Shown here: positions 2,985 to 59,302 of the stretch, in pieces
Position numbering within the stretch: the first letter of the stretch is position 1
Layout: every line of letters begins with the position of its first letter
NCBI GenBank assembly: GCA_049303835.1
Contig: JBAQNN010000002.1
Location: forward strand, 94,492 to 158,491
DNA length: 64,000 nt
Origin: Minisyncoccia bacterium
GTDB taxonomy: Bacteria; Patescibacteriota; Minisyncoccia; Phycocordibacterales; UBA9973
Direction: 5' to 3'
Notes under the pieces: generated by a model
Seen by the model: only the letters and a program-made list of their open reading frames with translations
Told to the model about the DNA's origin: nothing
The model's database searches: none
Program-made: the position numbers and the translations under genes

Positions 2985-3464
2985 TTAAATTTTTAGCATT
3001 CCAAAGAGTGCCACACCCAAGGCTACCGAGACATTTAGTGATTCCTTTTTTCCACGCATTGGAATCTCAGCAACAATATCGCACTTTTTTAAAATATTCT
3101 TTGGTATACCTGTCACTTCCGCCCCGACAATGAACGCGTTTCTATTTTGTAACTTTACTTTTTTGTAATCAATAGACTTTTTATCTTGTTCTATGCCAAT
3201 AATTAAATATTTTTCTTTCTTTAATTTAGTGAGTAATTGTAAAATATTTTTCTTCTGTTCCCATTTCACAAATTCTTCCGCCCCGAGCGCAGACTTTGCC
3301 AAGTCTCCTCTCTTCCTACCGAAACGATCCAGCGGCGTAGGCGTGTACCCCGTCAAATAAATCTTATCTATCCCCGCCGCATCCGCCGTGCGAAACATCG
3401 CTCCGACATTTTCCACACTTCGTATGTCATTTAATATTAAAATGTTTTTTTGATTCATAATCAT
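2985..3464 (-). CDS. SpoU/TrmH-family RNA 2'-O-methyltransferase
   Basis: 159 aa, NVGAMFRTADAAG and IPMRG..ESLNVSVA motifs of the SPOUT class. 4-nt overlap with uvrC. Confidence 0.8.
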   Translation of the reverse strand: MIMNQKNILILNDIRSVENVGAMFRTADAAGIDKIYLTGYTPTPLDRFGRKRGDLAKSALGAEEFVKWEQKKNILQLLTKLKKEKYLIIGIEQDKKSIDYKKVKLQNRNAFIVGAEVTGIPKNILKKCDIVAEIPMRGKKESLNVSVALGVALFGMLKI

Positions 3465-7358: not shown

Positions 7359-7438
7359 ATTTGTCCGCCCACTAGCGGATAACGCAATGCACACCCCGCT
7401 TTGTTCATAGGGGGTGTCTATCTCAATAATCTAACATA

Positions 7439-29016: not shown

Positions 29017-29994
29017 TTATCTGCCATCCACTGACCAATGCCAAGGTTCGGATGGTAAGTTAGAAAGACCGTATTTACCGGCATTTGCTTGTAGCCACAC
29101 AAAGCACTTATTATCGCGGGTTTGAATAAATTTTCCATCACACTGTAGATCAAATGCCTTGCCATGGTTGTGATTTGATTGACCTGGAAGAGCTGTGGGT
29201 GGATTACATTTTGCACTTGCGTTTTCGTAGTCTCCATTACAATATTTTATTCTTAATTGTTTCTGTTGTTCTGTAGATCTATATCCCCCACCTGTTATGT
29301 TTAATCCGGCACTTTTTGATGCAACTAGCATGGCGTTAATGTTTGAAACAATATCTTTACATGCAAACATGCTAATTTGGGTTTTTACCACTCCGGCGCT
29401 ACATCCAGATGTAACTCCTGGGGGGTTCCCAGAATCGCTTGCTATTGCGTCTGCTAGTGTTACCTCTACTGTTATTTTTTCTAAACTACTCAGATCAGTC
29501 TTTAGAATATCTGGATTTATTTGGTTTAAGATTGTCCAAGCGCCCAAAGCGAGCACAAGTCCAAAAATAGCGCCAGTGATTCTATGTTTACCGTTTTCTT
29601 TATTAGATATCAGTTCACTAGTCATATACTCCAAACCACCCACCACTATCATTATCACAGCCAACACAGCGCATATACCGATGAAAATACGTATCATTAT
29701 GTTCAAATACTCACCTATTTTGGAATTTTCTCCCTCTGCGCTTGTCGGGTCAAAGGTTTTTAGTTGTCCATCTTCACACCCAGGAGTACCTTTTTCACAA
29801 GGCAGAGGGGCTAAAAAATTATATTTCAAATCATTTTCTTGTGTAGCATTTACGCAGGACACCCCATCAGGAGCAAGTATTTTATCTCCTGTGCATTCAA
29901 CTGCCAAAACAGAGTTGGTGGAGACAAAAAAACTAAAGATTAAAAAAACCAATTGTAATGAGACTATTATCTTTTTAAGCATATCTTTTTTCAT
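29017..29994 (-). CDS. fusion protein: VirB2/TrbC-like T4SS pilin domain + C-terminal M15 (VanY-like) peptidoglycan peptidase
   Basis: 325 aa: signal peptide, YNFLAPLPC motif, two hydrophobic helices (IRIFIGICAVLAVIMIVVGG, ITGAIFGLVLALGAWTILNQI), then GYRSTEQQ...SNHNHGKAFDL...EPWHWS. Confidence 0.6.
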   Translation of the reverse strand: MKKDMLKKIIVSLQLVFLIFSFFVSTNSVLAVECTGDKILAPDGVSCVNATQENDLKYNFLAPLPCEKGTPGCEDGQLKTFDPTSAEGENSKIGEYLNIMIRIFIGICAVLAVIMIVVGGLEYMTSELISNKENGKHRITGAIFGLVLALGAWTILNQINPDILKTDLSSLEKITVEVTLADAIASDSGNPPGVTSGCSAGVVKTQISMFACKDIVSNINAMLVASKSAGLNITGGGYRSTEQQKQLRIKYCNGDYENASAKCNPPTALPGQSNHNHGKAFDLQCDGKFIQTRDNKCFVWLQANAGKYGLSNLPSEPWHWSVDGR

Positions 29995-30980
29995 TAAAAT
30001 TCTACTCTTATTTCTTTACTTGTACCACCGAAAATTTTAAAGGTATCCTCAATCTCCAATTTTATTATAGATGTTCCCGACTGGCCCGACTGGACTGCGA
30101 GGGGCATAATATTCTTTTTATAAGCTGGCACAGCGACTTGATAATCGTTGATAAACCAATTAAATACGAGAGTCGGTATTCGTATTTCTTTAGGTGAGAT
30201 AAAATAAGGTACAGCCTCTATAATTTCATTTCCTTGTATCTTGTGTCCATCAGACAGAATCGTCTCCCAGACAGTTCCCGTAGTCGGGTTCTTTCTGTAA
30301 AATAGAATTTTTGGTTCTACTGTCCCCACAGTAATATTTGCAGCAGAAGAATATTTTTGATCTGTGGTGGAGGCCGTCACTCCTATAGTGCTAGTATCTT
30401 CCAGGTAATCATCTACATAGCTAAAAGAGTTTTTGCCATAACCGGAGGCATCTTGTTTGTTTGTATAGTCTCTCTTCCAAGCATAAACGAGGTTTTTAGA
30501 ATTTACTGTTTGGGTTCCATTTCTAATTTCTGGCATGGCCACTATTTTTATCTCGCTTCCGGTCGTCGGCATAGCCTTGCCACGATAAAAAGGTGGCACA
30601 TGAGAATCGTTTGCTTGCCAAAGGAGAGTCATAATGGATGGGCGGATCGTTATTCTCTTGTCTATAGTTCCGTCCGGTAGAGAGATAGAAGCTACGATGC
30701 TGGTCTCTTTTCCTGCCTCCGGAGCTGTAAGAGAAAAAGACTTTTTACCGATTCCAGACAAAACATTTTTCCCGTCCACAGACCATACGATGAGGACACT
30801 ATCCAGATTGCTGACATAGCTATTCAAGTTGATATTTACATTTTCATTTGGGCCAGGATTTTCCGGAGAGATGTCCACCAAGATACTACTTGAAGAAACA
30901 GCGGTTACTTCGGAAGGGAGAAAAATCCCTGTCAATAAAAGTGTTACTATTAAATATGAAAGTAAAAATCTTAATTGCAT
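29994..30980 (-). CDS. secreted protein of unknown function (T4SS-like operon)
   Basis: 328 aa, N-terminal signal/anchor. Its stop overlaps the start of the next gene by 1 nt. No motif recognised. Confidence 0.6.
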   Translation of the reverse strand: MQLRFLLSYLIVTLLLTGIFLPSEVTAVSSSSILVDISPENPGPNENVNINLNSYVSNLDSVLIVWSVDGKNVLSGIGKKSFSLTAPEAGKETSIVASISLPDGTIDKRITIRPSIMTLLWQANDSHVPPFYRGKAMPTTGSEIKIVAMPEIRNGTQTVNSKNLVYAWKRDYTNKQDASGYGKNSFSYVDDYLEDTSTIGVTASTTDQKYSSAANITVGTVEPKILFYRKNPTTGTVWETILSDGHKIQGNEIIEAVPYFISPKEIRIPTLVFNWFINDYQVAVPAYKKNIMPLAVQSGQSGTSIIKLEIEDTFKIFGGTSKEIRVEF

Positions 30981-31012
30981 AACTCAGCCTAATTATATCA
31001 TATCTGCTTTAC

Positions 31013-31047
31013 AACTTTATAACTTTCAACTTTTGAACTTTATAACT
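31013..31047. repeat. five degenerate 7-8-nt direct repeats AACTTTNN (AAAGTT in mRNA sense)
   Basis: acAACTTTatAACTTTcAACTTTtgAACTTTatAACTa directly after the virB4 stop. Followed in mRNA sense by TGATATAAT. Confidence 0.6.
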
Positions 31048-32893
31048 ATTGTTTACCCTCAGTTTCCGCTCTCTCCTGCTCCTCCTTGGCTTTTCTGTTT
31101 GAAAGTATTTGGGAAGGGTCGGAAGTGATTATCTGGTCTTCAGTATAAGAAGAAATGACTTTTATGGCTACATGCTTTAGGCCGGCAAAGAATATTCCCT
31201 CCCCGAGGCCTGACTCCAAAAGCAGATATTTTTCTTCATCCGTCAGGTTGAAGGTTTTTTGTAAAATATCTATAGTGGTCGGTGATTGTTTAAGGAGAAG
31301 TTGAATAGAAGAGTTTGTAATGATGGGGACACCATAAGGAGATTTCATAAAGTCGGCGGCGTCTTGGGTGATGGTGGAAAGACCGAGATAATATTTTCTA
31401 CCTCTTTTGGCGATAGAGTATAAGAATGAAGCGGTGTCTTCAGATTTCATCATCCACCAAGCCTCATCTACTACCAAGAGGCGCTTTTTCAAATTTTTTC
31501 GTACGGTATTCCAGATATAATGCATGATGATATACATGGCGACGGGTTTTAACTCGTCTTCCATGTCGCGGACGGAAAATACTACGAATTTTTTATTGAT
31601 ATCCACATTGGACGGTCTGTTTAAGAATGTCGCCCAAGAACCCCTCGTATATTTGGCTAGTCTGGTGACGATTGAATCACTTCCATCCATCCCTCCGAGC
31701 ACCATTTCAAAATCTGACAGAAGAGGAGGTTCAATGTTTGAGAAATCAGATTCAGGAGTGATATCTTTCATCGCATAAGTTTCGGAAATAGCTCGGTCTA
31801 CCATTGAATCTTCTTCAGGGGTGAGTCCGCCTAGCATCAATCTGAAAAGCCCTACCAAGTTTATGATATTTGAACGGAGGACATCTTCGGCTGTTTCGCC
31901 TTCGTGAGGAATAGGTAAATCAAAAGGATTGATGTGGTGATCGGAAGAAAGAGAAATATTGAAATATCTTCCACCGACCGCCTCTGACAAGAACTCGTAT
32001 TCCCTTTCCGGATCTATCACTATGACATCAACATCAAACATTAAAGATCTCAAAATTTCTAGCTTAGTGGCATACGATTTTCCGGAGCCGGACTTGGCAA
32101 AGGTCACGGAGTTGTAATTCTCTAGTGAAAATCTATCAAAGATGACTAGGCTGGAATTGTGCCTGTTGATGCCGTAAAGTATTCCTTTGTTGGAAGTCAG
32201 GTCAAAAGAAATAAATGGGAATACACTACTAAGTGGTTCAGAATTCAACTTCTGATGAATACCAAGTATGTCTGTATTTATGGGTATGACGCTCTTAAAA
32301 CCGTCTTCTTGTTGGAAGAGAGCCGGTTTGATATAGATGAGTTTTGATTCAAGGATTGATTTTATCTCATTTTCTATTTTGAAAAGTTCCAACTCGTTGT
32401 CGGCATAAATGGTGATGTAAATACCCACATCAAACATTTTTTCTTGCGCTTGGATCAGATTATTGCGCAGGCCCTCTAGGTCTTGGTAGGCAGTATCAAG
32501 CATAGGGTCGCGCACCATACCCTTACTCTCTCGTACACTTATCTGACTCTGCACCTCGGCGACTTTTTTCTGAAATTGTCTCAAGACCAGAGAAGTGTCT
32601 ATCGGATGAATAAAAATTGAAATATCAAAAACTTTATCCAGATTGATTATAGGAGAGAACCAATTGTCTGTCAGAAATCTAGGATAGGAAATGATGAAAA
32701 AAGTACGAGCGATTTTATCTCCCAAGCTTATGGATTTAGACGATATTTTCAGAGCTGAAGGAGCGATGACATCTTGGAGCTCCAGGGTGGCGGATTGGTA
32801 GATTTCTTCCGGCATCACTGCCAAGACGGAAGCTCTCACTTCCTTTTCCTCCCCTCCTTTTTGTCCACCTAATAATTTTTTTAAAAAGTCCAT
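31046..32893 (-). CDS. virB4: VirB4/TraE-type T4SS ATPase, C-terminal 3/4 (split gene, part 2)
   Basis: 615 aa, Walker A AKSGSGKSY, Walker B LLVVDEAWWMM, ITQDAADF. The N-terminus matches the DxIAPS...yP region that sits at about aa 215 of single-chain Gram-positive VirB4 homologues. Confidence 0.85.
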   Translation of the reverse strand: MDFLKKLLGGQKGGEEKEVRASVLAVMPEEIYQSATLELQDVIAPSALKISSKSISLGDKIARTFFIISYPRFLTDNWFSPIINLDKVFDISIFIHPIDTSLVLRQFQKKVAEVQSQISVRESKGMVRDPMLDTAYQDLEGLRNNLIQAQEKMFDVGIYITIYADNELELFKIENEIKSILESKLIYIKPALFQQEDGFKSVIPINTDILGIHQKLNSEPLSSVFPFISFDLTSNKGILYGINRHNSSLVIFDRFSLENYNSVTFAKSGSGKSYATKLEILRSLMFDVDVIVIDPEREYEFLSEAVGGRYFNISLSSDHHINPFDLPIPHEGETAEDVLRSNIINLVGLFRLMLGGLTPEEDSMVDRAISETYAMKDITPESDFSNIEPPLLSDFEMVLGGMDGSDSIVTRLAKYTRGSWATFLNRPSNVDINKKFVVFSVRDMEDELKPVAMYIIMHYIWNTVRKNLKKRLLVVDEAWWMMKSEDTASFLYSIAKRGRKYYLGLSTITQDAADFMKSPYGVPIITNSSIQLLLKQSPTTIDILQKTFNLTDEEKYLLLESGLGEGIFFAGLKHVAIKVISSYTEDQIITSDPSQILSNRKAKEEQERAETEGKQ

Positions 32894-32900
32894 AATTGTA

Positions 32901-32975
32901 TTTAGGCTTTAGCTTTTAGGCTCTAGGCTCTAGCTTTTGAGTTTGCTAATGCCTAAGGCCTAGTTGCCTAGCGCC
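32901..32975. repeat. heptad hairpin element copy A, (NNTAGGC)n - loop - (GCCTANN)n
   Basis: TTTAGGC TTTAGC TTTTAGGC TCTAGGC TCTAGC / ttttgagttt / GCTAAT GCCTAAG GCCTAGT TGCCTAGC GCC. It fills the gap between the two virB4 parts. Confidence 0.8.
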
Positions 32976-33614
32976 CTACTCTATTTTAATCTTACCCTCC
33001 AATTCTCCGGGGTTGAAAACTTTATAAAATACTTCCACTACTTCTTCGGTATTCAGCTGGGCCGAATTTATTCCACAACGAGACAATCCTTGCTGGATGA
33101 CAGCTACCCTCTCTTCTAGTTGAGATCTCTTCTCTTCAAAATCTATCTGTTTTGCGGCTCGCACTTCTTCTGAATTCTTTTTGGAAAATAGCTTTCCCAA
33201 TATCCCGGAATCTGATTTTAAAGTTGTACGTGAATATGGTATTACAATAAAGAAGTTTTTTGTCATGATACTGACAGATTCAGTAAAGCTTCTTATAAAC
33301 TCTATATATTCCCTAGTTTGCAACTTGATCAACGGCTCATTTTGCACTTTTACTCTGTTTTCTAAAAGGAGTAAATAAGGTCTGATGTCCAGCCTTCTGG
33401 ATTGGACTGATATCTGTACCGGAAAATCCAAGGTGTTTAAAAAATTTTGAAATTGAAGAATGGTCGCATGTTGTTCATCGGAAGATTTCAAGGATAGGTT
33501 GACCGAGTTTGCGAGTACGATGGCTCGGAGCTCACCTTCTTTTAGCACGATGATGCCATCGCGTATCTCTTTGATTGGTATAAATTCTTGTGTTGCTTTT
33601 GCTTTTAATGCCAT
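32976..33614 (-). CDS. virB4: VirB4 N-terminal domain (split gene, part 1)
   Basis: 212 aa, ATQEFIPIKEIRDGIIVL...NLSLKSSDEQHATILQFQNFLNTLDFPVQI resembles the N-terminus of Tn916 Orf16/PrgJ-type VirB4 (recalled from memory). Confidence 0.65.
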   Translation of the reverse strand: MALKAKATQEFIPIKEIRDGIIVLKEGELRAIVLANSVNLSLKSSDEQHATILQFQNFLNTLDFPVQISVQSRRLDIRPYLLLLENRVKVQNEPLIKLQTREYIEFIRSFTESVSIMTKNFFIVIPYSRTTLKSDSGILGKLFSKKNSEEVRAAKQIDFEEKRSQLEERVAVIQQGLSRCGINSAQLNTEEVVEVFYKVFNPGELEGKIKIE

Positions 33615-33623
33615 AAATTTTTT

Positions 33624-33700
33624 CTAGGGCTTTAGGCTCTAGGCGTTAGGCTTTAGCTTTTGTTTCGCTAGAGCCTAGTGCCTAAGGCCTAGCTGCCTGC
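33624..33700. repeat. heptad hairpin element copy B
   Basis: CTAGGGC TTTAGGC TCTAGGC GTTAGGC TTTAGC / ttttgtttc / GCTAGA GCCTAGT GCCTAAG GCCTAGC TGCCTGC. The last 12 nt supply the end of the prgI-like ORF. Confidence 0.8.
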
Positions 33701-34129
33701 ATTTTTCTTTTTACTCAAATCAAGCACGTCCAAGCTCCAGGCCAAATCTCGCAACCTACTTCCATCCAATTTTGAACTGACATTTGGCAGTACTTCATTT
33801 TTATTTTCATCCATGTTTGTAGTTTGCGATTTATTATTTGCTACCCTACCGGTCTTCTTCTTCCAAATATAAAGTTTGTTTTGAGAAAAATATTTAAACC
33901 CTGCTTCAATCATGTTTATAAAAGGCTTATTGTTTGGTTTATAGAAAGTAAGAGCTAAAGAAAACCCGGCGATAATCAAAATAGGGATGGCGCTAAAGAC
34001 GAGCCCTAATAATTTATAAAGCACAAAACACAAACCTGCTCCGCCGGCCAAATAAGCAAACTCCCTAAAAGTAAAAGGGCCGAATATTTTATCTTCTATT
34101 TCTAAAAATTGTGGAACCTTGAATTGCAT
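33689..34129 (-). CDS. PrgI-family (VirB3-like) two-TM T4SS protein
   Basis: MQFKVPQFLEIEDKIFGPFTFREFAYL then two TM helices. I prefer the ATG at 34129 over the track GTG at 34141. Confidence 0.65.
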   Translation of the reverse strand: MQFKVPQFLEIEDKIFGPFTFREFAYLAGGAGLCFVLYKLLGLVFSAIPILIIAGFSLALTFYKPNNKPFINMIEAGFKYFSQNKLYIWKKKTGRVANNKSQTTNMDENKNEVLPNVSSKLDGSRLRDLAWSLDVLDLSKKKNAGS

Positions 34130-34140
34130 AAATACAGGCA

Positions 34141-34542
34141 CTAGGCTTTAGGCGCTAGGCTCTAGCTGAGAAATTAGTTTATTCAACATTTTCATAATTT
34201 CTTCTAATAAAGAACCCACTTTATTATAATCTAATTTTGCAGTTTTGGGTAATTTTTTAGATATTATTAGCTGAGTTTCTAGCTCCGCACCAGAAGCAAA
34301 GGCAATAAGTAAGAATCTTTTGAATTCTGGAATTCCTCCTCGCATTTTCCCTTCTGCAATATTAGAAGGTATGGATACTGCCGCCCTACGAATTTGTGAG
34401 GTTAAACCATAAATTTCTTCCTTCGAAAATTTGTCTGTGAGTTCATAAACTGCTATTACAAGCTCTATCGATTTTTGCCACACGACTAAATCTCTATATG
34501 TTTTCATGTGTTTTTTACTAGCGCCTAATGCCTAGAGCCTAG
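34141..34542 (-). mobile_element. heptad hairpin element copy C carrying a four-helix-bundle (IVS-type) gene in place of the loop
   Basis: Left arm 34141-34166: CTAGGC TTTAGGC GCTAGGC TCTAGC. Right arm 34518-34542: CTAGC GCCTAAT GCCTAGA GCCTAG. By hand pairing the arms form a ~26-bp helix around the ORF. Confidence 0.55.
34148..34507 (-). CDS. four-helix-bundle protein (23S rRNA intervening-sequence protein family)
   Basis: 119 aa, MKTYRDLVVWQKSIELVIAVYELT...SIPSNIAEG...AELETQLIIS, the signature pattern of this family. The last codons (LEPSA) are encoded by the repeat arm. Confidence 0.85.
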   Translation of the reverse strand: MKTYRDLVVWQKSIELVIAVYELTDKFSKEEIYGLTSQIRRAAVSIPSNIAEGKMRGGIPEFKRFLLIAFASGAELETQLIISKKLPKTAKLDYNKVGSLLEEIMKMLNKLISQLEPSA

Positions 34543-38176: not shown

Positions 38177-40564
38177 TTAAAACGTATCCTCTCCCGCATG
38201 TGTATAGTCCGTCTTATTAGATCTAAAGACAGAGTTGCAATCTATGTCTGCACTGATTCTTTTATCTGTTTCACCTCCACCCAACCAGCTACAAATTCCA
38301 GTACAGGTAATATCTCCGTAAATATTTTTTGCATTGACTATAGGAAGATCTTTGTAGCCTTCTTCTCCCTCGTCATTGTTTTCGTTTCTGAAGGTGAAAG
38401 ATTGCCCTTGGTTAGAGGAATCTGATCTTATTATCTCTCCATGGCTATATCCAGAAACTATCGGAATGCTACAGAACTTTGCAAGTTCCGTCATTTGTCC
38501 ATGTTGTTTGCTTTCTCTTCCTCCAATTTTGTCCCAGTCAGCATTTTCTCTCTGTCCTTCACATTCTGTAGCCATATTCTTTATACTATTCCTTTTGTCG
38601 TTTAGTGAGTCCACATCTGATCTAGCGTTTTCTATTGTTATAGAAGATGAAACTGAAGATTTTATTGAATTATATTGTTTCTTTAACAGAACCATAGTTT
38701 TTTCCTGGGCAGAACCAGCTTCTGGTTGTGTCGCTATCGCCGCTAAGCCTGTTTTTTGTGCCGCTTTTTCGTTTCCTGCTATCGCCTTTAACCTTGCAAG
38801 CGCCTGAGCTTTTTCTCTTTTTATTCTTATAGCTTCGTCCATTTTTTCTGGAAAACCATCCATATTACTTATCTCCTCTAAATACAATATTGAGTTAGGA
38901 AGTTCATTTATCATTCTCATTATCACCCAATCCTTAAAGGAATCTACTGCAAACTTTAATTCTCTAACAGCATCAGTCGCTGCTTTTATTTTTAGATCAT
39001 CATCCCCAGCCTGATCTTTTTGTAGTTTATTTACAATTCTTCCCTGTTCTTCTTTTAATCTTTTTTCCCAGTTTTTGTCTGGTCCAGGAATACACTGGTC
39101 TAGTTTTTCAGCAAGTTGAGAGATCCCAAGACTTTCTGGATTAATATTATTTATTAGTTTCGGTATTATTTCTAGAAGAATTATTTCAGTTTCTGTGTTT
39201 GCTATGTCCCCAGGTATATAGGTACCATTACCAGTATTTCCTATTTCCTCGATCGTTTCTTCAGCACCTGTTTCTGGATTGATTTTTGTAACAATAGTTT
39301 TTCCATGCAATTGTTTTTTAAATTTATCTAATATGATTTCTTCGTCAGGCCCGGAGTCCCAGGACGAGTTAGCTCCTCCCTCATCAGGGCTTCCAAGAGT
39401 TAGCCCATTATAGCTCCAATCGTCCACTACAGGCTCAGGGTTTTTCTTGCTTGCTAGGCTATTTAGCCCGTCTCCTATGAATTTATTTAATAAAGCATCA
39501 AAAATGGTTGAAAGACTATTCCCCATAGCTGCTCCGAGTTCACTTTGGCGAAAGTTTGATCCTAGGGCATTTGTTATCTGGCTTGATACGACAGCGCCAG
39601 GAGTTGTACTTACTAATCCTCCTGGACAAGTATTTTCTTCTTGCCAATCTTGTTTTTCAGTTGCAACCCCATTTTGATAATCCATGTTGTAATTATCACA
39701 CCGCGTCTTTTCTTCTGGTGTTGGTTGTCCGTCGATGTTAAACTGACAAAAACTCTCATCATATTTTTGTGATGGCTTGAAGCTCGGTCTCTGAAATTCG
39801 TTCACTCCATTATTGTAGGATGGATTTGATGGACAAGTTTGTGGAGACAAGAACCCCATTCCCTGTTGTAGGGTTGTTTGTACCTTCTGTGCAGCTGTTT
39901 GAGTGGTTCCTTGTACTCGTCTAGCGAGTTCTTCTGTAGCGAGCATTTGGAAGCCTAGATAATTGTTTTGTGGATATTGAGTGTTTATGAGGAAAGCATC
40001 CCAGCCCCCTACATTGAAATTATTTTGATAGTTGCGAAGTTGTACTGGGTCAGTCATGACCTTACTCAAAGAATATGCTGCGTTATCACTGAGTTGTCTT
40101 TTATATGCGTTTATTGTGTTTAAAGCAAAATCTTTACCAAAAGGATATTTTAGATTGTCATAACCGAATGTGTCTACTAAATTTTTTACTTCTGATTTAG
40201 CGATGTCTTCAAAAAATGATTGTGGGTTTTCTAAAAAGAGAGGGCTTCCATGAAAACCCGAATTTATCCAGTTTACAGTACTTTTTGTTATCTCTTGTAG
40301 GGCTTTTCGGGCTACGGCTTGCAAAACTTGCTTCAAGATTTCTTGATACCATGTTTGTACAGCCTTTGAGGCAGTTATAGCGTTGGAGGCATTTCCTTGT
40401 ATTCCCAACGCAACCTTTATTCCACTCCATATCCCCCCCAAGATATCCATTACAGTAACTGCCTCAGCCTTCCTTGGTTCAATAAATAAAAAAGAGGGGA
40501 CAAGAATCATAATTAGCAGGAAAAGAGAGATTAACTTTTGAATTTTTGGGTTCTTAAAAATCAT
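38177..40564 (-). CDS. large secreted/anchored protein of unknown function (T4SS-like operon)
   Basis: 795 aa, N-terminal hydrophobic anchor ending ...PRKAEA, several Cys pairs, no motif recognised. Confidence 0.55.
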   Translation of the reverse strand: MIFKNPKIQKLISLFLLIMILVPSFLFIEPRKAEAVTVMDILGGIWSGIKVALGIQGNASNAITASKAVQTWYQEILKQVLQAVARKALQEITKSTVNWINSGFHGSPLFLENPQSFFEDIAKSEVKNLVDTFGYDNLKYPFGKDFALNTINAYKRQLSDNAAYSLSKVMTDPVQLRNYQNNFNVGGWDAFLINTQYPQNNYLGFQMLATEELARRVQGTTQTAAQKVQTTLQQGMGFLSPQTCPSNPSYNNGVNEFQRPSFKPSQKYDESFCQFNIDGQPTPEEKTRCDNYNMDYQNGVATEKQDWQEENTCPGGLVSTTPGAVVSSQITNALGSNFRQSELGAAMGNSLSTIFDALLNKFIGDGLNSLASKKNPEPVVDDWSYNGLTLGSPDEGGANSSWDSGPDEEIILDKFKKQLHGKTIVTKINPETGAEETIEEIGNTGNGTYIPGDIANTETEIILLEIIPKLINNINPESLGISQLAEKLDQCIPGPDKNWEKRLKEEQGRIVNKLQKDQAGDDDLKIKAATDAVRELKFAVDSFKDWVIMRMINELPNSILYLEEISNMDGFPEKMDEAIRIKREKAQALARLKAIAGNEKAAQKTGLAAIATQPEAGSAQEKTMVLLKKQYNSIKSSVSSSITIENARSDVDSLNDKRNSIKNMATECEGQRENADWDKIGGRESKQHGQMTELAKFCSIPIVSGYSHGEIIRSDSSNQGQSFTFRNENNDEGEEGYKDLPIVNAKNIYGDITCTGICSWLGGGETDKRISADIDCNSVFRSNKTDYTHAGEDTF

Positions 40565-41562: not shown

Positions 41563-42417
41563 CTAGTTTTTAGCAAGCATTGACCAGTCTGATAGTGACA
41601 AATCTTCCGCTCTTTTATCTCCCAAGTTTGCCGAAGACAATTTTTCGGTAGAAATCAACCCTTTTAGGTTTGAAGAAAGCTTTTTGCGCTTGTGGGCAAA
41701 GCCATTTTTCACTATTTCCCAAAATTTTTCTTCATTTATTTTATTTTTATAAAAAAATTGACGAGAAATATTTTTTATCTCAATGATTGCCGAATCAACC
41801 TTGGGCTCGGGAGAAAAATACCTCTTATTTACCTTCATAACCATTTTCGGTTCCCCATATGCCTTCACGGAGATAGAAAGGATACTCTCCTTCCCGTCTC
41901 TGGCGACTATTCTAGACGCCACCTCGTGCTGAACCATGAGCACCATACGCTCTGGCTGATTTTCTGCTGTCAAAAATTTTTTTAAAATAGCGCCAGTGAT
42001 GTTGTAAGGAATGTTGGCAATTAGCTTATAGCTACACAAAATATTCTCGGACTCACCACGCATATTCACCTGCTGGTGAATTGCTTTTCTCGCGCCGTCG
42101 CGCTGCGAAGAGGTTCGCTCTAGAACATTTTGTTTCAGGTTAAAGTTCAAAATATCTTCATTTATTAACACAAAAGCACCTAACTGAATTTGTGTGGCAA
42201 ATTTGGTTTTTAAAAACTCAAAAAGTTCTCTATCTTTTTCTACTGCTACTACAGTGGCTCCGGTCTGTAGAAGTTTTTCTGTTAGCGCTCCCTTGCCCGG
42301 ACCAATCTCTAGGACAACATCACCAGGTTTTATTTCTCCCGCCTCGATAATCTTCTTGAGAGCTAGCTCAGATTTCAAAAAATTCTGTCCAAGTGATTTT
42401 TTTGCTTTGTGTATCAT
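41563..42417 (-). CDS. rsmA: 16S rRNA (adenine1518/1519-N6)-dimethyltransferase RsmA/KsgA
   Basis: 284 aa, SLGQNFL, VLEIGPGKGALT, ANIPYNIT motifs. Confidence 0.9.
   Translation of the reverse strand: MIHKAKKSLGQNFLKSELALKKIIEAGEIKPGDVVLEIGPGKGALTEKLLQTGATVVAVEKDRELFEFLKTKFATQIQLGAFVLINEDILNFNLKQNVLERTSSQRDGARKAIHQQVNMRGESENILCSYKLIANIPYNITGAILKKFLTAENQPERMVLMVQHEVASRIVARDGKESILSISVKAYGEPKMVMKVNKRYFSPEPKVDSAIIEIKNISRQFFYKNKINEEKFWEIVKNGFAHKRKKLSSNLKGLISTEKLSSANLGDKRAEDLSLSDWSMLAKN
42036..42133. repeat. in-frame GC-rich hairpin insertion inside rsmA (homologous to the pcrA copy)
   Basis: Closing stem ACAAAAT.TTCT / AGAA.ATTTTGT. Hairpin ATTCACC-TGCT-GGTGAAT (42064-42081) and hairpin GCGC-CGTC-GCGC (42092-42103). 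Confidence 0.7.
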
Positions 42418-43962: not shown

Positions 43963-45990
43963 TTATAAGTAAATCGTTTTTATTCCGCTAGTTTCGCCTT
44001 CTTTTTCTAATAAATCTGCTGGGATGTCGGAAATAAATTCCGAAGGAGCGTTTATTTGGCGTGAGCCGAAAATGGTGCGGAAATTTGCAAAGGATAAAAA
44101 TAATTTTTCTTTCGCGCGAGTAAGGGCTACATAAAATAGTCGGCGTTCCTCTTCTCTATCCTCGCCTGTTTGTCTCTCGTTCTGTCTTTCGTGCGGAAAG
44201 AGTCCGTCTTCCAGCCCTGTGACAAAAACGTATTTAAACTCAAGGCCCTTTGAAGCATGGACAGTCATGAGTTTGACGGCATTTATCGTTTCTTTTTTTT
44301 CTGTTTGGATCATTAACGAATCTTGGTCACTCGCCAGAGCTCCATCTTCTAAAAGCTTTTCTATGCCTGCACCGTTTTCTAAATTATCGTATTTCAAAGC
44401 CAAGGTAGCAAGCTCTTTGATGTTTTCCAGTCTTTCTATGTCCTCCTCTCCCCCACCCAAAAGCTCTTGTTCAATGCCGGATTTTTTGACCACAAACTTT
44501 ATCACTTCACTCGCTTTGGCGGTTTTTATTTTTTCTTTTATTTCTTCCAGAATTTGATAAAAATTGTTTATTTTCACTCTGACTTTTATTGGTAGCCCCC
44601 CGATTTCATTAGCAAAAATTTTTACTAAAGTGACCTTACCTATTCCTCGCGCCGGGAAATTGATAATTCTTTTTATATCCGAGAGGCTGTCAGGGTTTAA
44701 GGCGGCACGTAAATATGCGAGGGTGTCTTTGATTTCTTTTCTTTCAAAAAACTTTACTCCGAGGACCTGATAAGGAATATTGTAGCGGAGCATCGCTTCT
44801 TCCAGTGCGCGGGATTGAAAGTTTGCGCGATACAAGACCGCAATCTCTGAGTGTGAGCCTAGAGAAGAATGTTGATCCATAATTTCTAAAATTTTTGTCG
44901 CCACAAACTCTGCTTCGTCGGTTTCATCCAACGCTTCGTAGAGTCCTATTTTATCGCCCACTACATTTTCAGTAAATAAATTTTTATCCGGGCGGTATTT
45001 GTTTTTTTTGATTATCTCATTGGCCGCTTCCAAAATATTCTTTGTAGAACGATAATTTTGTTCTAGTAAGATTATTTTTGCATTCGGATAATCTTTTTCA
45101 AAACTCAAAATATTTTTTAAATTTGCTCCGCGCCAGGAATAAATATTCTGATCCGCATCTCCCACTACGCAGATATTTTTGTTGTTTTCGGAAAGCAGTT
45201 TGGACATCAAATATTGCACTTCGTTGGTGTCTTGATATTCGTCTACATGGATGAAGTCCCATTTTTCTTGATAAATTTTCCTAATTTCTGCATTTTCTTT
45301 TAATAATTTTGTCGCTTTCAAAAGCAAGTCGTCAAAATCAAGCGAATTTTCCTTCATCTTTTGTTTTTCATACAAATTCCACACCTGGGCCACTATTTTC
45401 CCTAGAGTGTCACTAGCCCCTTCCGCATAATCGGATAAGTGCACGAATTTCCCCTTTTCGCGCGAGATTATATTTTTTATTTTTTTTGGATCGTATTGTT
45501 TCGGATCTATGCCAAGCTCTTTTAAGATATTTTTTATCAAAGTCGTCGCATCGCCCTCATCTAAAATTGTGAAATATTTTGTGAGTCCGAGCAATTTAGC
45601 ATTTTGTTTTATTATATAAACTCCGAGTGAGTGAAATGTAGAAACGAAAGGCGCAGAAAATACTTCTCGCCTGGGGTCGCTGTCTCCACGTGCTCGTGGA
45701 GCGCTCCCTCTCGGCTCGTCAGCCTGCGAGAGACCCCACTCAAGAAGATTTTCTGCGCCCAGGGCAGACATGATTCTCTCCCGCATTTCTTTCGCTGCTT
45801 TGTTTGTGAAAGTCACAGCCAAAATCTTCTCCGGAGCGATTCCATTTTTTATCAAATTTACGATTCTGTGGGTGATAGTCTTGGTTTTTCCTGCTCCTGC
45901 TCCGGCGACGACAAGAAGCGGACCGTCCATATGAAGCGCCGCCTCTTTTTGTTCGTTATTTAGCCCCGCCAAGTGCTCCAAATTAGTCAC
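43963..45990 (-). CDS. pcrA: ATP-dependent DNA helicase PcrA/UvrD (GTG start)
   Basis: 675 aa, motif I AGAGAGKTKT, Ia, II VDEYQDTN, TFHSLG, VHASKGLEF. Confidence 0.9.
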   Translation of the reverse strand: MTNLEHLAGLNNEQKEAALHMDGPLLVVAGAGAGKTKTITHRIVNLIKNGIAPEKILAVTFTNKAAKEMRERIMSALGAENLLEWGLSQADEPRGSAPRARGDSDPRREVFSAPFVSTFHSLGVYIIKQNAKLLGLTKYFTILDEGDATTLIKNILKELGIDPKQYDPKKIKNIISREKGKFVHLSDYAEGASDTLGKIVAQVWNLYEKQKMKENSLDFDDLLLKATKLLKENAEIRKIYQEKWDFIHVDEYQDTNEVQYLMSKLLSENNKNICVVGDADQNIYSWRGANLKNILSFEKDYPNAKIILLEQNYRSTKNILEAANEIIKKNKYRPDKNLFTENVVGDKIGLYEALDETDEAEFVATKILEIMDQHSSLGSHSEIAVLYRANFQSRALEEAMLRYNIPYQVLGVKFFERKEIKDTLAYLRAALNPDSLSDIKRIINFPARGIGKVTLVKIFANEIGGLPIKVRVKINNFYQILEEIKEKIKTAKASEVIKFVVKKSGIEQELLGGGEEDIERLENIKELATLALKYDNLENGAGIEKLLEDGALASDQDSLMIQTEKKETINAVKLMTVHASKGLEFKYVFVTGLEDGLFPHERQNERQTGEDREEERRLFYVALTRAKEKLFLSFANFRTIFGSRQINAPSEFISDIPADLLEKEGETSGIKTIYL
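45650..45759. repeat. in-frame GC-rich hairpin insertion inside pcrA (about 29 extra codons between motif Ia region and TFHS)
   Basis: 12-nt perfect terminal inverted repeat GGCGCAGAAAAT / ATTTTCTGCGCC, extended by CTTCT/AGAAG and TGGGGTC/GACCCCA. Hairpin CTCCACG-TGCT-CGTGGAG (45684-45701) and hairpin GGCT-CGTC-AGCC (45713-45724). Confidence 0.75.
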
Positions 45991-50968: not shown

Positions 50969-51002
50969 GGGGCGGGGTGTCGATTTCTCGACTCCCCGCC
51001 CC
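50969..51002 (-). terminator. GC-rich rho-independent terminator of the small GC-rich ORF
   Basis: GGGGCGGGGtGTCGA-tttc-TCGACtCCCCGCCCC. In minus-strand sense it is followed by a U-rich tract (CTTTCTAATTTCTCTTAATTTTTTTT). Confidence 0.7.
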
Positions 51003-51026: not shown

Positions 51027-51188
51027 TCAGAAGAGCTTCTTGACGATCTCCCTGAAGCTCTCCAGGTTGGAGAGCGCGAGAAGGGTCGCGACGACGATGG
51101 TGAGCACCCCGAGCGAGATGCCCAGCATGGTCTTGGTGGGGTTTCGCTTCGGTGAAGGGTTGTCTTCATCCAGTCCGAGCATGGTCAT
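51027..51188 (-). CDS. 53-aa single-pass membrane protein encoded by a ~58% GC ORF (compositionally foreign)
   Basis: Own translation: MTMLGLDEDNPSPKRNPTKTMLGISLGVLTIVVATLLALSNLESFREIVKKLF. SD AAAGGAG lies 6 nt upstream, with its own promoter and terminator. It is below the track cutoff; the track shows only two long out-of-frame ORFs here. Confidence 0.55.
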   Translation of the reverse strand: MTMLGLDEDNPSPKRNPTKTMLGISLGVLTIVVATLLALSNLESFREIVKKLF

Positions 51189-51210
51189 GTTTTTCTCCTT
51201 TCCGAATTTG

Positions 51211-53302: not shown

Positions 53303-53374
53303 GCACCCGTAGTGAAATGGATATCACAACAGTCTTCGGAACTGTCGTTGGGGGTTCGAGTCCCTCCGGGTGCA
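53303..53374 (+). tRNA. tRNA-Arg (anticodon UCG), no encoded CCA
   Basis: Hand-folded: acceptor GCACCCG/CGGGTGC, anticodon arm ACAGT-CTTCGGA-ACTGT, T arm GGGGG-TTCGAGT-CCCTC. Confidence 0.9.
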
Positions 53375-53440
53375 CAAAGTGCGGGGTACTTTGTGCAAGG
53401 CGGAGCGCGACGGCGCGAGCCAGGGTCGTGCAAATTTTCA
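53371..53440. repeat. GC-rich structured segment between tRNA-Arg and cca, sharing a 16-nt exact match with the rsmA insertion
   Basis: Hairpin TGCACAAAGT-gcggggt-ACTTTGTGCA uses the last 4 nt of the tRNA. 53404-53419 AGCGCGACGGCGCGAG equals the reverse complement of 42089-42104. Confidence 0.65.
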
Positions 53441-53450
53441 GTAGAAAATT

Positions 53451-55079
53451 ATGCCTGACCACAATAATGTTATGGAACAAGATCTAAAAAATTTAATACA
53501 AAAAATACCCAAGGAGGTTTCACATGTAACAAGTACACTAGAAGAAGCTGGTTTTGAAGTGTACCTAGTCGGCGGCTGTGTTCGCGATTTACTGATGAGC
53601 AGAGAGCCCAAAGATTGGGATGTCACTACCAATGCCAAACCGGATCAGATTATTGGTCTTTTTGAGAAAACTATTTACGAAAACACCTTTGGAACCGTAG
53701 GAGTAGTTGTTCCACGCCTGTCCGCCAAAGCCTTGGCGTCGGAGGATGAAACAACAGAAAAAGAGGTTTCACATGAAACTATGATTATTGAGGTCACTCC
53801 ATACAGAATTGAGGCAAAATATAGTGATTTTAGGCATCCAGATGAAGTAAAATTTAGTCAAAAACTAGAAGATGATCTAAAAAGACGCGATTTTGGTGTT
53901 AACGCGATGGCCCTAAGTCCTAAAGGACATCTGGTTGATTTGTTTGATGGTCTAAAGGACATCAAAGATAAGATACTTAAGGCTGTCGGAAACCCAGATG
54001 ACCGATTTGAAGAGGATGCTCTCAGAATGTTGAGAGCTGTCCGTTTTGCTTGTCAACTTGATTTTTCTGTGTCGTATGAAACAACGGAAAGTATTTTGAA
54101 AAATGCGGAATTAATAAAAAAAATTTCTGCCGAAAGAATTCGTGATGAGTTTGTAAAAATGGTTATGTCGCCGAATTCTGCGAGTGGAATGGTGATGTTG
54201 CAAAAATTTAATTTGTTAAAAAATATAATTCCGGAATTAGAAGAGGGGATAGGGTGCGAACAATCGGGCGAACACATATACGATGTTTGGAATCATTTAC
54301 TGGCCGCCCTTCAGCATGCTTCAGACAAGAATTGGCCTTTAGAAATAAGGCTTTCTGCACTTTTTCATGATATCGGGAAACCTCGTTCTAGACGAAGCAT
54401 AACTTCACCTGATGCTTTTGCTCAGTCGCTCGGTCCCTCGTTTCACTCAGCCACTCCTTCACAAAAGCATACAGGTTCAGTTTCTAAATCTAAGAAAAAA
54501 TTTACTTTTTATGGTCATGAAGTTGTCGGCGCACGGATGACAAAAAAAATAATGGAACGGTTAAAATTTTCAAACAAAGAAATTGAAGCTGTGGAAAAAC
54601 TCGTACGCAACCACATGTTCTTCTCGGACACGGAATTGATCACCCTCTCGGCGGTGCGAAGAATCATCACCAAGGTTGGGAAAGAAAACATCTGGTCTCT
54701 AATGGACGTCCGTGAGTGTGACAGGGTCGGGATGAAGAAAAAAGAAGCGCCATATCGCCTGCGGAAGTACTTTGCGATGATAGAAGAGGCACTGAGGGAC
54801 CCAATATCTGTAAGCCAATTAAAGATAAACGGCGAATTTATGCAAAAAGAGCTCGGAATTGTTCCTGGTCCCAGAATGGGGTGGATTTTGAGTGCTCTTC
54901 TAGAGGAAGTCTTAGACGCTCCGGAGAAAAATACTGTGGAACATCTCTCGGAATTAGTGAAATCTCTGAATATGCTAGGAGATGCTGAACTCAAAACTCT
55001 TGGTCTTCGTGGAAAAGAAAAAAAAGAAGAGCTTGAAGAAGAAGAAGTTGCCAAACTTCATAAAAAACACGGAGTCTAA
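53451..55079 (+). CDS. cca: CCA-adding tRNA nucleotidyltransferase with HD domain
   Basis: 542 aa, GGCVRDLL, DWDVTT, RRDFGVNAMA, HDIGKP...YGHE. Carries two apparent insertions (aa ~90-115 and ~312-345). Confidence 0.85.
   Translation: MPDHNNVMEQDLKNLIQKIPKEVSHVTSTLEEAGFEVYLVGGCVRDLLMSREPKDWDVTTNAKPDQIIGLFEKTIYENTFGTVGVVVPRLSAKALASEDETTEKEVSHETMIIEVTPYRIEAKYSDFRHPDEVKFSQKLEDDLKRRDFGVNAMALSPKGHLVDLFDGLKDIKDKILKAVGNPDDRFEEDALRMLRAVRFACQLDFSVSYETTESILKNAELIKKISAERIRDEFVKMVMSPNSASGMVMLQKFNLLKNIIPELEEGIGCEQSGEHIYDVWNHLLAALQHASDKNWPLEIRLSALFHDIGKPRSRRSITSPDAFAQSLGPSFHSATPSQKHTGSVSKSKKKFTFYGHEVVGARMTKKIMERLKFSNKEIEAVEKLVRNHMFFSDTELITLSAVRRIITKVGKENIWSLMDVRECDRVGMKKKEAPYRLRKYFAMIEEALRDPISVSQLKINGEFMQKELGIVPGPRMGWILSALLEEVLDAPEKNTVEHLSELVKSLNMLGDAELKTLGLRGKEKKEELEEEEVAKLHKKHGV
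54407..54476. repeat. hairpin-forming segment within the insertion between HDIGKP and YGHE of cca
   Basis: ACCTG.ATGCTTTTG (54407-54420) pairs with CAAAAGCAT.CAGGT (54462-54476): 14 bp with a one-nucleotide bulge, 41-nt GC-richer loop. Confidence 0.5.
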
Positions 55080-59118: not shown

Positions 59119-59302
59119 TTTTGAAAACTTTTTGCTTTTTTGTCCCAAAATGCTAAGATAAATCCGAAGTCGTGAGTCTTTTAAAAAGTTTATCAGTTAA
59201 CTAACAAGTTCGTCTTTAGATAGAGATAGTGTCTCACTTTTTTGTGAAACAGTACTTTATTCTGAAGATGAGCCCTGCTCGCTTAGGCGGGTAAACCCAT
59301 AA

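Follow-up and report, generated by a model that had tools for sequence, protein, structure and literature searches.

Rickettsia palindromic elements (RPEs) are palindromic repeats of about 100–150 bp found in a small, AT-rich, host-dependent genome (Ogata et al., 2000, as summarised in PMC10969869). According to the same summary they form several subfamilies, about half of them lie in unrelated housekeeping ORFs, always in frame and read through, and the rest are intergenic; the segment that they encode appears to be compatible with the fold of the protein, and no transposase is known for them (PMC10969869). The repeat family from CPR bacteria dealt with here is like the RPEs in being a multi-copy, stably folding palindrome with in-frame, stop-free copies in unrelated genes. 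It comes, however, from another phylum and is likened to RPEs by functional class; membership in RPE-1 to RPE-10 is not claimed and kinship is not expected. Unlike in RPEs, conservation lies in an inner three-way junction that bears two hairpins, the terminal stem differs from copy to copy and is built from host flank copied inverted, and both orientations are found at one hot spot.

The mobile GC clusters of yeast mitochondria are likewise GC-rich palindromes in a very AT-rich genome; they are optional at their sites, have in-frame copies in var1 and are tied to recombination and gene conversion. They differ from the CPR family in being organellar, shorter (about 30–50 bp) and accompanied by AT-rich direct target duplications. 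Long perfect inverted repeats with both arms translated are present inside coding genes of Nematomorpha mitochondria, which implies that arm complementarity is kept up despite the coding constraint, as here, but these palindromes are not members of a dispersed family built around a conserved core (PMC6649704). RU/ERIC (PMC2759123) and the Coxiella MITEs (PMC5896051) share with the CPR family open frames and an occasional in-frame fusion to an ORF, but they are mainly intergenic, their terminal inverted repeats are conserved, they are accompanied by direct target duplications, and their in-frame housekeeping copies are exceptional, whereas about half of the CPR copies are of this kind. Template-switch (quasipalindrome) mutagenesis can in one event create or perfect a stem and rewrite an arm as reverse complement, which matches the copy-specific arms of the CPR family; it is, however, a general process rather than an element and leaves the core common to hundreds of copies unexplained (10.1101/2023.04.19.537475). 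A full-text literature search retrieved no description of such elements in CPR/Patescibacteria. In-frame palindromic repeats have so far been treated largely as a Rickettsia curiosity. The family is best read, with a probability of roughly 0.7, as a selfish palindromic DNA repeat of the RPE-like kind that is tolerated in surface loops; that CPR bacteria have a system of their own, apparently an abundant one, suggests that selfish DNA of this kind turns up repeatedly in reduced, AT-rich, host-dependent genomes.

The window is the whole 64-kb stretch of DNA that was analysed. Its rsmA gene (16S rRNA dimethyladenosine transferase; 41563–42417, minus strand; Pfam RrnaAD, E = 3.7e-56) encodes a protein identical to P0001 from a 232-kb Minisyncoccia MAG contig and carries in frame a full-length copy of the repeat at 42036–42133 (minus strand; fold z = −4.3), where a first-pass annotation of the sequence had located an insert with the closing stem and both hairpins as found here. 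The insert is a GC-rich palindrome of 98 nt that folds as a long closing stem with two hairpins (GACG and AGCA loops); the peptide read from it is ...QNVLERTSSQRDGARKAIHQQVNMRGESENILC.... The closing stem P1 consists of ACAAAATATTCT / AGAACATTTTGT at 42036–42047 / 42122–42133; in mRNA sense, its 5′ arm is ACAAAAUGUUCU (42122–42133, minus strand) and its 3′ arm AGAAUAUUUUGU (42036–42047, minus strand), as defined by the fold and the multi-copy alignment. The first-pass annotation had counted this stem as part of the element. The stem is indeed present, but its outer part is copy-specific: the outer ACAAAAU of the 5′ arm is the host codons (K)QN and the outer AUUUUGU of the 3′ arm is this 5′ flank copied inverted. 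Hairpin 1 (42092–42103, minus strand; fold and R2 consensus, R2 being the covariance model described below) has a 4-bp stem and the conserved GACG loop (CGTC on the plus strand), so that the plus strand reads GCGC-CGTC-GCGC. Hairpin 2 (42060–42084, minus strand; covariation and R2) has a 10-bp stem with one bulge and the conserved AGCA loop (TGCT on the plus strand), with the plus-strand motif ATTCACC-TGCT-GGTGAAT at 42064–42081. As minus-strand RNA the element has a minimum free energy of −37.2 kcal/mol versus −23.4 ± 3.2 for shuffled sequences, none of 200 of which were as good. It is a mosaic, the P2 stem being of the subfamily A type and the hairpins of the subfamily B type.

A second full copy, of subfamily D, lies in frame in the pcrA/uvrD-type helicase gene (43963–45990, minus strand; Pfam UvrD-helicase, E = 9e-88) at 45649–45760 (minus strand; core 45655–45754), between helicase motifs Ia and Ib; its peptide is ...AENLLEWGLSQADEPRGSAPRARGDSDPRREVFSA..., and its arms GGCGCAGAAAAU / AUUUUCUGCGCC are again specific to the copy. 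Its minimum free energy is −66.6 versus −38.3 for shuffled sequences (z = −7.6). The two elements have one common fold architecture, as had been claimed, and all four linear motifs that they were said to have in common are present. This does not mean that a comparison of the two sequences suffices: their pairwise alignment scores above shuffles, but only modestly (z = 3.4), in that its score is reached by 17 of 2000 dinucleotide shuffles and exceeded by some unrelated windows of genomic DNA. Since primary-sequence similarity was thus insufficient alone, homology was assessed with the independent covariance model R2, built from 81 copies, all from genomes other than that of the window. R2 matches the rsmA copy with 90 bits (E = 2.4e-20) and the pcrA copy with 79 bits (E = 1.3e-17), whereas its best match outside the family has 19 bits; structure and intermediate copies establish the proposed homology of the two. 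The R2 scan finds three copies in the window, the third being a shortened intergenic one at 53390–53465 (plus strand; 33 bits, E = 8.7e-6), with both hairpins and the greater part of the long stem missing, which lies directly 3′ of a tRNA gene (53303–53374) and overlaps the start of a CCA-adding/poly(A) polymerase-like ORF (53451–55079; Pfam).

The family occurs widely in the AT-rich genomes of Paceibacteria/Nomurabacteria (CPR). Within 1.29 Mb from 80 related genomes there are 81 copies; the family is also present in more than 120 metagenome stretches, with 95 R2 matches in them. The host proteins span about 12 families and include RsmA, PcrA (two sites), UvrC, RecG (two), TGT, PGM/PMM, Aminotran_5 (two), TsaD, a class-I aaRS and an LTD protein. 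In the metagenome set, which is the unbiased sample, about half of the copies are intergenic (43 of the 90 checked for ORF context). Some intergenic copies resemble an A-tract, a stem and a T-tract. Of the 83 genome copies 73 lie in long ORFs, as do 47 of the 90 metagenome copies, and all 120 are in frame and without a stop codon, which rules out a translational bypass element of the T4 gene 60 or mitochondrial byp type. In coding copies 3.4–3.9 of the six frames are open versus 1.5–2.0 after shuffling. The rsmA and pcrA copies of the window have the same orientation relative to their genes, as the first-pass annotation stated, but this is not a rule of the family: among the metagenome copies 22 have the same and 25 the opposite orientation. 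The 4:1 bias to the same orientation in the genome loci is put down to non-independent hot-spot copies because it is gone in the unbiased sample. Occurrence in unrelated genes and in intergenic DNA, in many genomes and in both orientations, bears out the earlier preference for a mobile or templated element over lineage-specific loops.

Might the insert instead be a module selected in its host genes, as a cis-regulatory mRNA structure or as a useful peptide loop? The structure is strongly conserved and the element recurs in DNA-repair and RNA-modification genes, as would be expected of such a module. Yet either orientation can occupy one site, which results in different RNAs and different peptides, and more than one reading frame of the element is used among the coding copies. 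Codon-position entropies of paired columns are 1.44, 1.17 and 1.04 for positions 1, 2 and 3, respectively, and the unpaired columns are conserved most (0.5–0.8); the third codon positions are thus not the most variable, codon-level constraint is lacking and the peptide itself is not under selection. Many orthologues are without the insert, and the insert in RsmA has a low predicted order (see below). An intrinsic terminator is rejected for the coding copies, as a scan of 40–48 kb gave nothing better than shuffles except for hairpin 2 on the plus strand. With all this against it, a selected module is hardly credible. An intein is rejected likewise: the insert has only 28–35 aa, at least about 130 aa being needed, and its peptide varies with orientation and frame.

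RsmA orthologues can be compared with and without the insert. The insert adds 28 residues to the window RsmA, in line with the extra residues noticed earlier, and the linker at this site has 9–15 aa in 42 of the loci scanned versus 35 aa in the window protein. For example, P0043 with EQNVLRNYKII and P0002 with EQNVL-(28 aa)-RNYKII represent the empty and the filled site. The insert is missing at this site from about half of the RsmA orthologues and species, and the site used in the window's pcrA is empty in most pcrA orthologues. In an alignment with the solved structure of B. subtilis KsgA (6ifs) nothing matches RsmA residues ~100–125, where there is a variable linker. The AlphaFold2 model of RsmA has pLDDT values below 50 at the N-terminus and at residues 100–108 and 114–124, and nowhere else. 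From the alignment and this model we read the insert as probably occupying a permissive, poorly ordered surface loop, and the conserved frame suggests that it is translated as part of the host protein. Across species the rsmA site is filled by subfamilies A, B and D and by reverse-complemented A; in L017 it holds the same variant as the pcrA copy of the window (GVSQADGPRGSAPRARGDSDP), and in L014 a remnant of the 3′ arm only. Much of the variation in length among CPR core proteins goes back to these elements, for example, that of RsmA (249–318 aa) and of the PcrA loops, and such inserts affect alignments, phylogenies, structure prediction and annotation.

What is conserved in the family is a nucleic-acid fold, namely a three-way junction that bears two hairpins; the GACG and AGCA loops and the junction nucleotides are invariant, and loops and junction are the best-conserved parts of the element. 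In an alignment of 17 copies 86.9% of the cells are paired versus 66% after shuffling (0 of 500 as high), and 31 of 39 pairs are altered on both sides; slid controls yield 38–50%. The hairpin 2 helix is paired in 98% of the cells, with changes on both sides in 8 of 10 pairs. It should be noted, however, that covariation is here a weaker proof of a functional fold than usual because template switching gives compensatory changes without selection. G·U pairs outnumber A·C mismatches in the stems by 109:46 in copies with the same orientation as the gene, by 38:11 in the opposite orientation and by 18:2 in intergenic copies, the G·U pairs always being on the element's own strand, whatever the orientation of the gene. 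This asymmetry may in part be inherited from the consensus and favoured by model-based alignment.

A conserved fold whose very stable closing stems reach about 30 perfect bp could also act in RNA. The stem would then join the flanks and the element would be excised from the mRNA, for instance through cleavage of the RNase III type and subsequent ligation, so that the protein would be made without the insert. The conserved loops and the lack of codon-level constraint on the peptide agree with this, and intervening sequences in rRNA and tRNA are known in CPR genomes (PMC13011429). Excision would, however, lift the very constraint that is seen in the 120 in-frame, stop-free copies; the orientations are equally common, so that the mRNA carries either strand; and about half of the unbiased sample is intergenic. 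Nor does any ribozyme or intron family match: Rfam at the gathering threshold found only tRNAs in the window, its E-value mode gave only chance-level matches for the rsmA and pcrA elements, and 14 element-carrying loci had no match. A self-splicing intron, a ribozyme or another curated Rfam family is therefore rejected, and removal from the mRNA is extremely improbable. Insertion in rRNA is rejected, too: some metagenome flanks are superficially rRNA-like, but Rfam found no rRNA.

The arms behave quite differently from the interior. While the interior is conserved, the outer 12–16 nt of each arm are wholly different between copies, and yet in 25 of 83 copies the stem extends by at least 6 perfect bp past the model, versus 0.1% in controls. 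In L035, for example, host GGAGAAAAT is mirrored as ATTTTCTCC, the mirrored part being missing in empty alleles, and in the pcrA copy of the window GGCGCAGAAAAT is mirrored as ATTTTCTGCGCC. At pcrA site 2 the LD(S/N/G)G codons vary from species to species in step with the P(L/P)S codons downstream, the two being exact reverse complements. In the three coding hot spots examined, (C/G)AAAAT precedes the 5′ junction. We know of no described transposon class with an inverted duplication of the target flank. It is conceivable, although distinctly unlikely, that the three-way junction is the substrate of a new structure-specific mobility system, in which the folded strand would integrate 3′ of an A-rich motif and hairpin-primed gap closure would duplicate 7–20 nt of the target flank inverted rather than direct, each copy thereby becoming a self-correcting palindrome. 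If this were true, CPR bacteria would hold a new transposition chemistry that is survivable inside essential genes. In any case, the inverted flank duplications and co-varying arms offer a natural system for the study of template-switch and fold-back synthesis with minimal repair machinery.

More conventional would be a classical MITE or a REP/PATE-type element moved by an IS transposase or an HUH enzyme (IS200/IS605, RAYT) encoded elsewhere. The elements are short, non-coding, palindromic and multi-copy, and their fold is kept on one fixed strand, as in elements that move as single-stranded DNA. The terminal arms, however, differ between copies, and no conserved terminal inverted repeats common to the copies were found. 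Direct target-site duplications were not found either, the flanks being inverted repeats; the one ambiguous case, a 7-nt direct repeat in L030, is TTCGGAA, which is itself nearly palindromic. Classical cut-and-paste transposition is unsupported because both these signatures are lacking. The orientation is unbiased with respect to genes and to GC skew (in the flanks of intergenic copies the skew on the element strand is positive in 15 and negative in 24), by which a lagging-strand or orientation bias of the IS200/IS605 type is ruled out. Among 52 ORFs of the window Pfam revealed no transposase or dedicated enzyme but only an XerC/D-like recombinase, and tblastn with IS200 and IS608 TnpA probes found no Y1 transposase in 2.18 Mb, which is weak evidence. 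Carriage by phages or plasmids was not seen in exact-pattern scans of IMG/VR or in blastn searches of phage and plasmid collections. An element of the MITE or REP class is thus very unlikely. The conserved junction and loops give phylogenetic profiling something concrete to start from in a search for the responsible enzyme.

In the genome L030 the copies in rsmA and pcrA have unrelated flanks, but their cores show 100% identity over about 96 nt; core identities are 97% in L012, 93% in L043 and 86% in L017. The near-identical cores with unlike flanks in L030, L012 and L043 again favour the mobile or templated element. In L012, however, only a core of about 70 nt is common to the copies, which could be due to gene conversion between old copies just as well as to a fresh transposition. 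The insertions could be ancient ones in a few permissive loops that are inherited vertically, the similarity between sites being due to gene conversion and template-switch repair with no ongoing transposition. The mosaic of subfamilies A and B in the rsmA copy of the window and the failure to find a transposase agree with this, as does pcrA site 2, which is filled in nearly all loci scanned and has LDxG/PLS flanks that are constant across core types and orientations. Yet the identity in L030 spans the whole unit, about half of the species lack an insert at the rsmA site and most lack one at pcrA site 1, and the many unrelated genes and intergenic sites with unrelated arms demand many independent arrivals at some time. 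We therefore regard such a history without ongoing transposition as unlikely, although the insertions at the hot spots (rsmA loop and pcrA site 2) may for the most part be old and passed on vertically.

For the selfish repeat that we prefer the following course of events is proposed. The element would spread at the DNA level by transposition and/or gene conversion between copies and would land in or beside A-rich sequence. Within genes it would survive only if the frame is kept, no stop codon is introduced and the surface loop is permissive; it would then be transcribed and translated with the host protein, to which it would add some 28–35 poorly ordered residues. The one-strand G·U pairs may indicate that a folded single strand is recognised by a putative factor, or recent descent from master copies. 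In its outer part the closing stem is not carried by the element but consists of host flank and its inverted copy, and we infer that the arms are made and kept perfect by fold-back DNA synthesis, either hairpin-primed or by template switch, during insertion or afterwards. If the two arms recombined, the core could be inverted in place.

The window also has three in-frame palindromic inserts of other families, in UvrC, UvrA and PolA. No similarity was seen for those in UvrA and PolA; only the one in UvrC resembles a known type, namely 'type E' from the rsmA hot spot (score 35).

The rsmA gene of the window (41563-42417, - strand) carries at 42036-42133 (- strand) an element that is a 49% GC island in a window of 38% GC. 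The stems and loops that the first-pass annotation had read in this interval are present exactly as listed: as - strand RNA its fold comprises two hairpins and two stems, a closing one of 12 bp and an imperfect one (MFE −37.2 kcal/mol, z −4.3). The extra residues claimed for RsmA are borne out by comparison with orthologues of 65–75% identity, which range in length from 249 to 318 aa and reveal an insertion between the DIL.F strand and YKIIANIPYNIT. For example, one orthologue (P0043) reads EQNVLRNYKII where another (P0002) reads EQNVL[28 aa]RNYKII. KsgA from B. subtilis (6ifs) has no counterpart to RsmA residues ~100–125, and in the AlphaFold2 model of RsmA (mean pLDDT 83) values below 50 are found at the N-terminus and at residues 100–108 and 114–124, the latter two stretches falling within the insert. 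A Minisyncoccia (Paceibacteria, CPR) MAG encodes an identical RsmA on a contig of 232 kb.

The copy in the pcrA/uvrD-type helicase gene (43963-45990, - strand) spans 45649-45760 and has the same fold architecture (MFE −66.6 kcal/mol, z −7.6), as had been claimed; between the two copies there are many compensatory differences. A similarity above that of shuffled sequences is seen modestly by plain local alignment (z 3.4; 17 of 2000 dinucleotide shuffles as good), and some unrelated genomic windows outscore the pair. Scanning the window and the loci of relatives with derived covariance models recovered both window copies, a third, truncated one and 81 elsewhere. The first model, R1, was built on an alignment of 15 rsmA-site copies from relatives plus the two window copies, and found the 81 copies in 1.29 Mb, the sum of 80 rsmA loci taken from genomes of GTDB species, every one a MAG of Nomurabacteria, Paceibacterota or the like. 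The second, R2, was trained on those 81 foreign copies only and gave 90 bits (E = 2.4e-20) for the rsmA copy, 79 bits (E = 1.3e-17) for the pcrA copy and 33 bits (E = 8.7e-6) for the truncated intergenic copy at 53390-53465, all other window sequence remaining at or below 19 bits. Moreover, the rsmA site of one relative (L017) holds the subfamily of the window's pcrA copy (...GVSQADGPRGSAPRARGDSDP...). Because of the R2 and L017 results, both window copies belong to one family, and the homology asserted in the first-pass annotation stands.

In the 17-sequence alignment 39 pairs form four helices, with 86.9% of cells paired as against 66% in column shuffles (0 of 500 as high) and 38–50% with slid partners; 31 of the 39 pairs show changes on both sides. 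The GACG loop, the AGCA loop and the junction nucleotides are near-invariant across the family, and no Rfam family matches the element. For in-frame copies oriented like their host gene, the entropy of paired positions is 1.44, 1.17 and 1.04 at codon positions 1, 2 and 3, which means that variation does not concentrate at third positions, and conservation is highest in the unpaired columns of loops and junction (0.5–0.8). The encoded peptide is wholly different when the orientation or frame of the element changes. Judged from this codon-position pattern and from the change of peptide with orientation and frame, the peptide is a passenger and the nucleic-acid fold the thing conserved. It is unlikely that the element is a regulatory structure specific to one gene or a peptide under selection, given that both orientations occur, that there is no codon-level constraint and that the peptide varies. 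Coding copies have 3.4–3.9 of the six frames open, shuffles 1.5–2.0 and intergenic copies 1.5–2.1. On the element's own strand G.U pairs exceed A.C mismatches (109:46, 38:11 and 18:2) however the element is oriented in the gene, which points to a single strand of the element being the species that folds; the asymmetry may be partly inherited from the consensus and helped by the model-based alignment.

In the genome loci of relatives, 73 of 83 copies lie inside ORFs that are 200 aa or longer; all 73 are read through in frame. Three hot spots exist in coding sequence. In 42 loci the rsmA loop is empty; it is filled in ~36, half of the latter with the element family. At pcrA site 1, which lies between FTNKAAxEM and PFVSTFHS, most loci are empty, the window and L047 having the same insert. 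Site 2 of pcrA, flanked by ILEIxD and LSEIAILYR, is filled in nearly all loci, often by two tandem elements, and is empty in the window. One and the same site can hold in different species subfamily A (...ERTLGRSDGDGQRKFSAENFRGESENIL...), B (...LKSIAQADEPSIAISQQGNMCGFQ...), D, or the reverse complement of A or D, and other palindromic families also occupy these rsmA and pcrA sites. For an unbiased sample, JGI metagenomes were scanned with a degenerate 20-base core pattern, yielding at least 120 stretches; R2 gave at least 95 matches on the retained loci. Among the matches listed, 43 of the 90 copies checked for ORF context are intergenic and 47 are in ORFs, 22 in the orientation of the gene and 25 opposite; no strand bias of element copies was found. 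Hosts among these listed matches include a class-I aminoacyl-tRNA synthetase, RecG (two), phosphoglucomutase, TsaD, an LTD-domain protein, cysteine-desulfurase-type aminotransferases (two), UvrC, PcrA, RsmA and one TGT gene with two copies. No element copy was found in IMG/VR with exact patterns or in the phage and plasmid collections by blastn. The synthetase (L118:6571-10302, -; 1244 aa) also has a His_Phos_1 (histidine-phosphatase) domain inserted between the halves of its catalytic domain. The intergenic copies of four metagenome loci (L094, L124, L106, L107) are enclosed in a conserved outer frame, CAAAACTCGTCG...CGAGAAAGAGTTTTG, and in three loci (L156, L159, L113) the frame is a different one, CTAGTGACGCGAGCGG...ACGCGAGCGAATTAATAAC; such framed intergenic copies may be larger composite repeats, and Rfam detected no RNA gene in the outer-framed metagenome copies.

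The outer part of the closing stem differs from copy to copy, yet it pairs with itself near-perfectly within each. Perfect pairing of at least 6 bp, typically 8–10 bp, continues beyond the 98-nt model in 25 of 83 copies (random positions, 0.1%). Comparison with empty alleles identifies the 5′ arm as host sequence and the 3′ arm as an inverted copy of it. For example, empty alleles of pcrA site 1 read AAAGGGCAAAAT-ACA-ATTCC, a filled one (L035) AAAGGAGAAAAT-[core]-ATTTTCTCC-GGA-ATTCC, and the window GGCGCAGAAAAT-[core]-ATTTTCTGCGCC. Species-to-species variation of the host codons LD(S/N/G)(G/E/R) at pcrA site 2 is matched in exact reverse complement by the P/S/R-L-S codons downstream (TAGATAGTGG/CCACTATCTA, TAGACAACGG/CCGTTGTCTG, TTGGATGGAGG/CCTCCATCCA), with both core orientations. 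All three coding hot spots have their 5′ junction after (C/G)AAAAT (...KQN or ...G(A/E)EN). Since one-arm substitutions in the close pair L012/L043 are uncompensated, perfect arms imply recent templating. The arms are probably made by fold-back DNA synthesis, hairpin-primed or by template switch, and the core might be flipped in place by recombination between them. Template-switch or fold-back synthesis is described as creating and perfecting hairpins (10.1101/2023.04.19.537475).

In L030 the copies at rsmA and pcrA site 2 are identical over ~96 nt (32 codons) between unrelated flanks, and rsmA and pcrA copies within one genome are 97% (L012), 93% (L043) and 86% (L017) identical. In L012 only a ~70-nt core is common to both copies, the 17-bp closing stems differing and each being internally complementary, and the rsmA copy of the window combines, as a mosaic, a stem of subfamily A type with hairpins of subfamily B type. 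Core-only sharing and this mosaic argue that gene conversion between copies contributes, besides or instead of transposition. An 'empty' rsmA site (L014) retains a 23-nt remnant of the 3′ arm, a visible sign of decay. Near-identical cores in unrelated genes, together with intergenic copies, support the earlier proposal of a mobile or templated element rather than lineage-specific loops.

An intron, intein or bypass element is ruled out because all coding copies are in frame and free of stop codons, and a classical MITE by the lack of conserved termini and of a direct duplication. No IS transposase is encoded in the window (Pfam on window ORFs) and no HUH transposase was detectable by tblastn in 2.18 Mb with approximate IS200/IS608 TnpA probes. 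Mobile GC clusters of yeast mitochondria are a parallel. Functionally the closest system is that of the Rickettsia palindromic elements, about half of which are described as lying in frame within unrelated housekeeping ORFs (PMC10969869), sequence relatedness not being claimed; coding palindromes reported from Nematomorpha mitochondria are another parallel (PMC6649704). The conserved internal three-way junction and the copy-specific, flank-derived arms set the present family apart, and no description of such elements in CPR/Patescibacteria was found in the literature.

Three other GC-rich palindromes are inserted in frame into genes of the window for DNA repair and replication: in uvrC (3903-3992, -; gene 3461-4690) and uvrA (6823-6906, -; gene 4692-7394), each with a perfect closing stem of 21–22 bp and fold z −9.1, and in polA (12977-13084, -; gene 11560-14016), with a 22-nt closing stem at 86% and fold z −5.9. 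Their membership in the rsmA/pcrA family is excluded by R2 (at most 19 bits). That in uvrC is similar to 'type E', found at the rsmA hot spot of L049 and L078. Among the other palindromic families at the rsmA/pcrA hot spots (L004-L078) are C (...KFFSGPRxSGSLSQPDHSKN...), E (...FSSLRPS..W.PREAQN...) and G (...FSNGLAGxGTRxTEDLRK...), which are sometimes in tandem with the element family. Many element-free rsmA linkers (including L047, L059, L061, L037, L033, L046, L008 and L066) show direct tandem duplication of 12–15 nt of host codons from immediately downstream, e.g., AGCTATAAGCTA...AGCTATAAGCTA encoding SYKL...SYKL; slippage may have produced these duplications, or they may be the mark of a different process at this loop. 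An imperfect 100-nt palindrome at 40367-40466, in an ORF (38177-40564, -) for a large secreted or hypothetical protein, matches the element models weakly (14–17 bits, E 0.1–0.5) and may be a degenerate or unrelated hairpin.

Intergenic 32902-32956 and 33601-33710 contain repeated TTAGGC(N)TAG-like units with a strong fold (GC-corrected z ~−4.9), and similar CCTAG/GCCTA units occur in some rsmA linkers of relatives (e.g., L010, L052, L021). A type IV secretion-like cluster (29017-34507, -; TraG P-loop, PrgI, T4SS pilin plus VanY) adjoins a free-standing '23S rRNA intervening sequence protein' gene (34148-34507). A 54-codon ORF (51027-51191, -) for a small hydrophobic protein (MTMLGLDEDNPSPKRNPTKTMLGISLGVLTIVVATLLALSNLESFREIVKKLF) has ~63% GC in a 38% GC genome, a composition that suggests foreign origin, and is followed by a perfect GC-rich hairpin (50969-51002; GGGGCGGGG...CCCCGCCCC). 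The cumulative GC-skew minimum and a switch in gene orientation lie near 50 kb (~48-53 kb), beside a tRNA cluster; since dnaA and dnaN (24213-25556) are ~25 kb away from this minimum, the origin of replication may lie apart from dnaA. A strongly folding leader (59201-59310; GC-corrected z −4.8) immediately precedes the polynucleotide phosphorylase gene (59303-61438, +) and may be an ordinary pnp autoregulatory hairpin.
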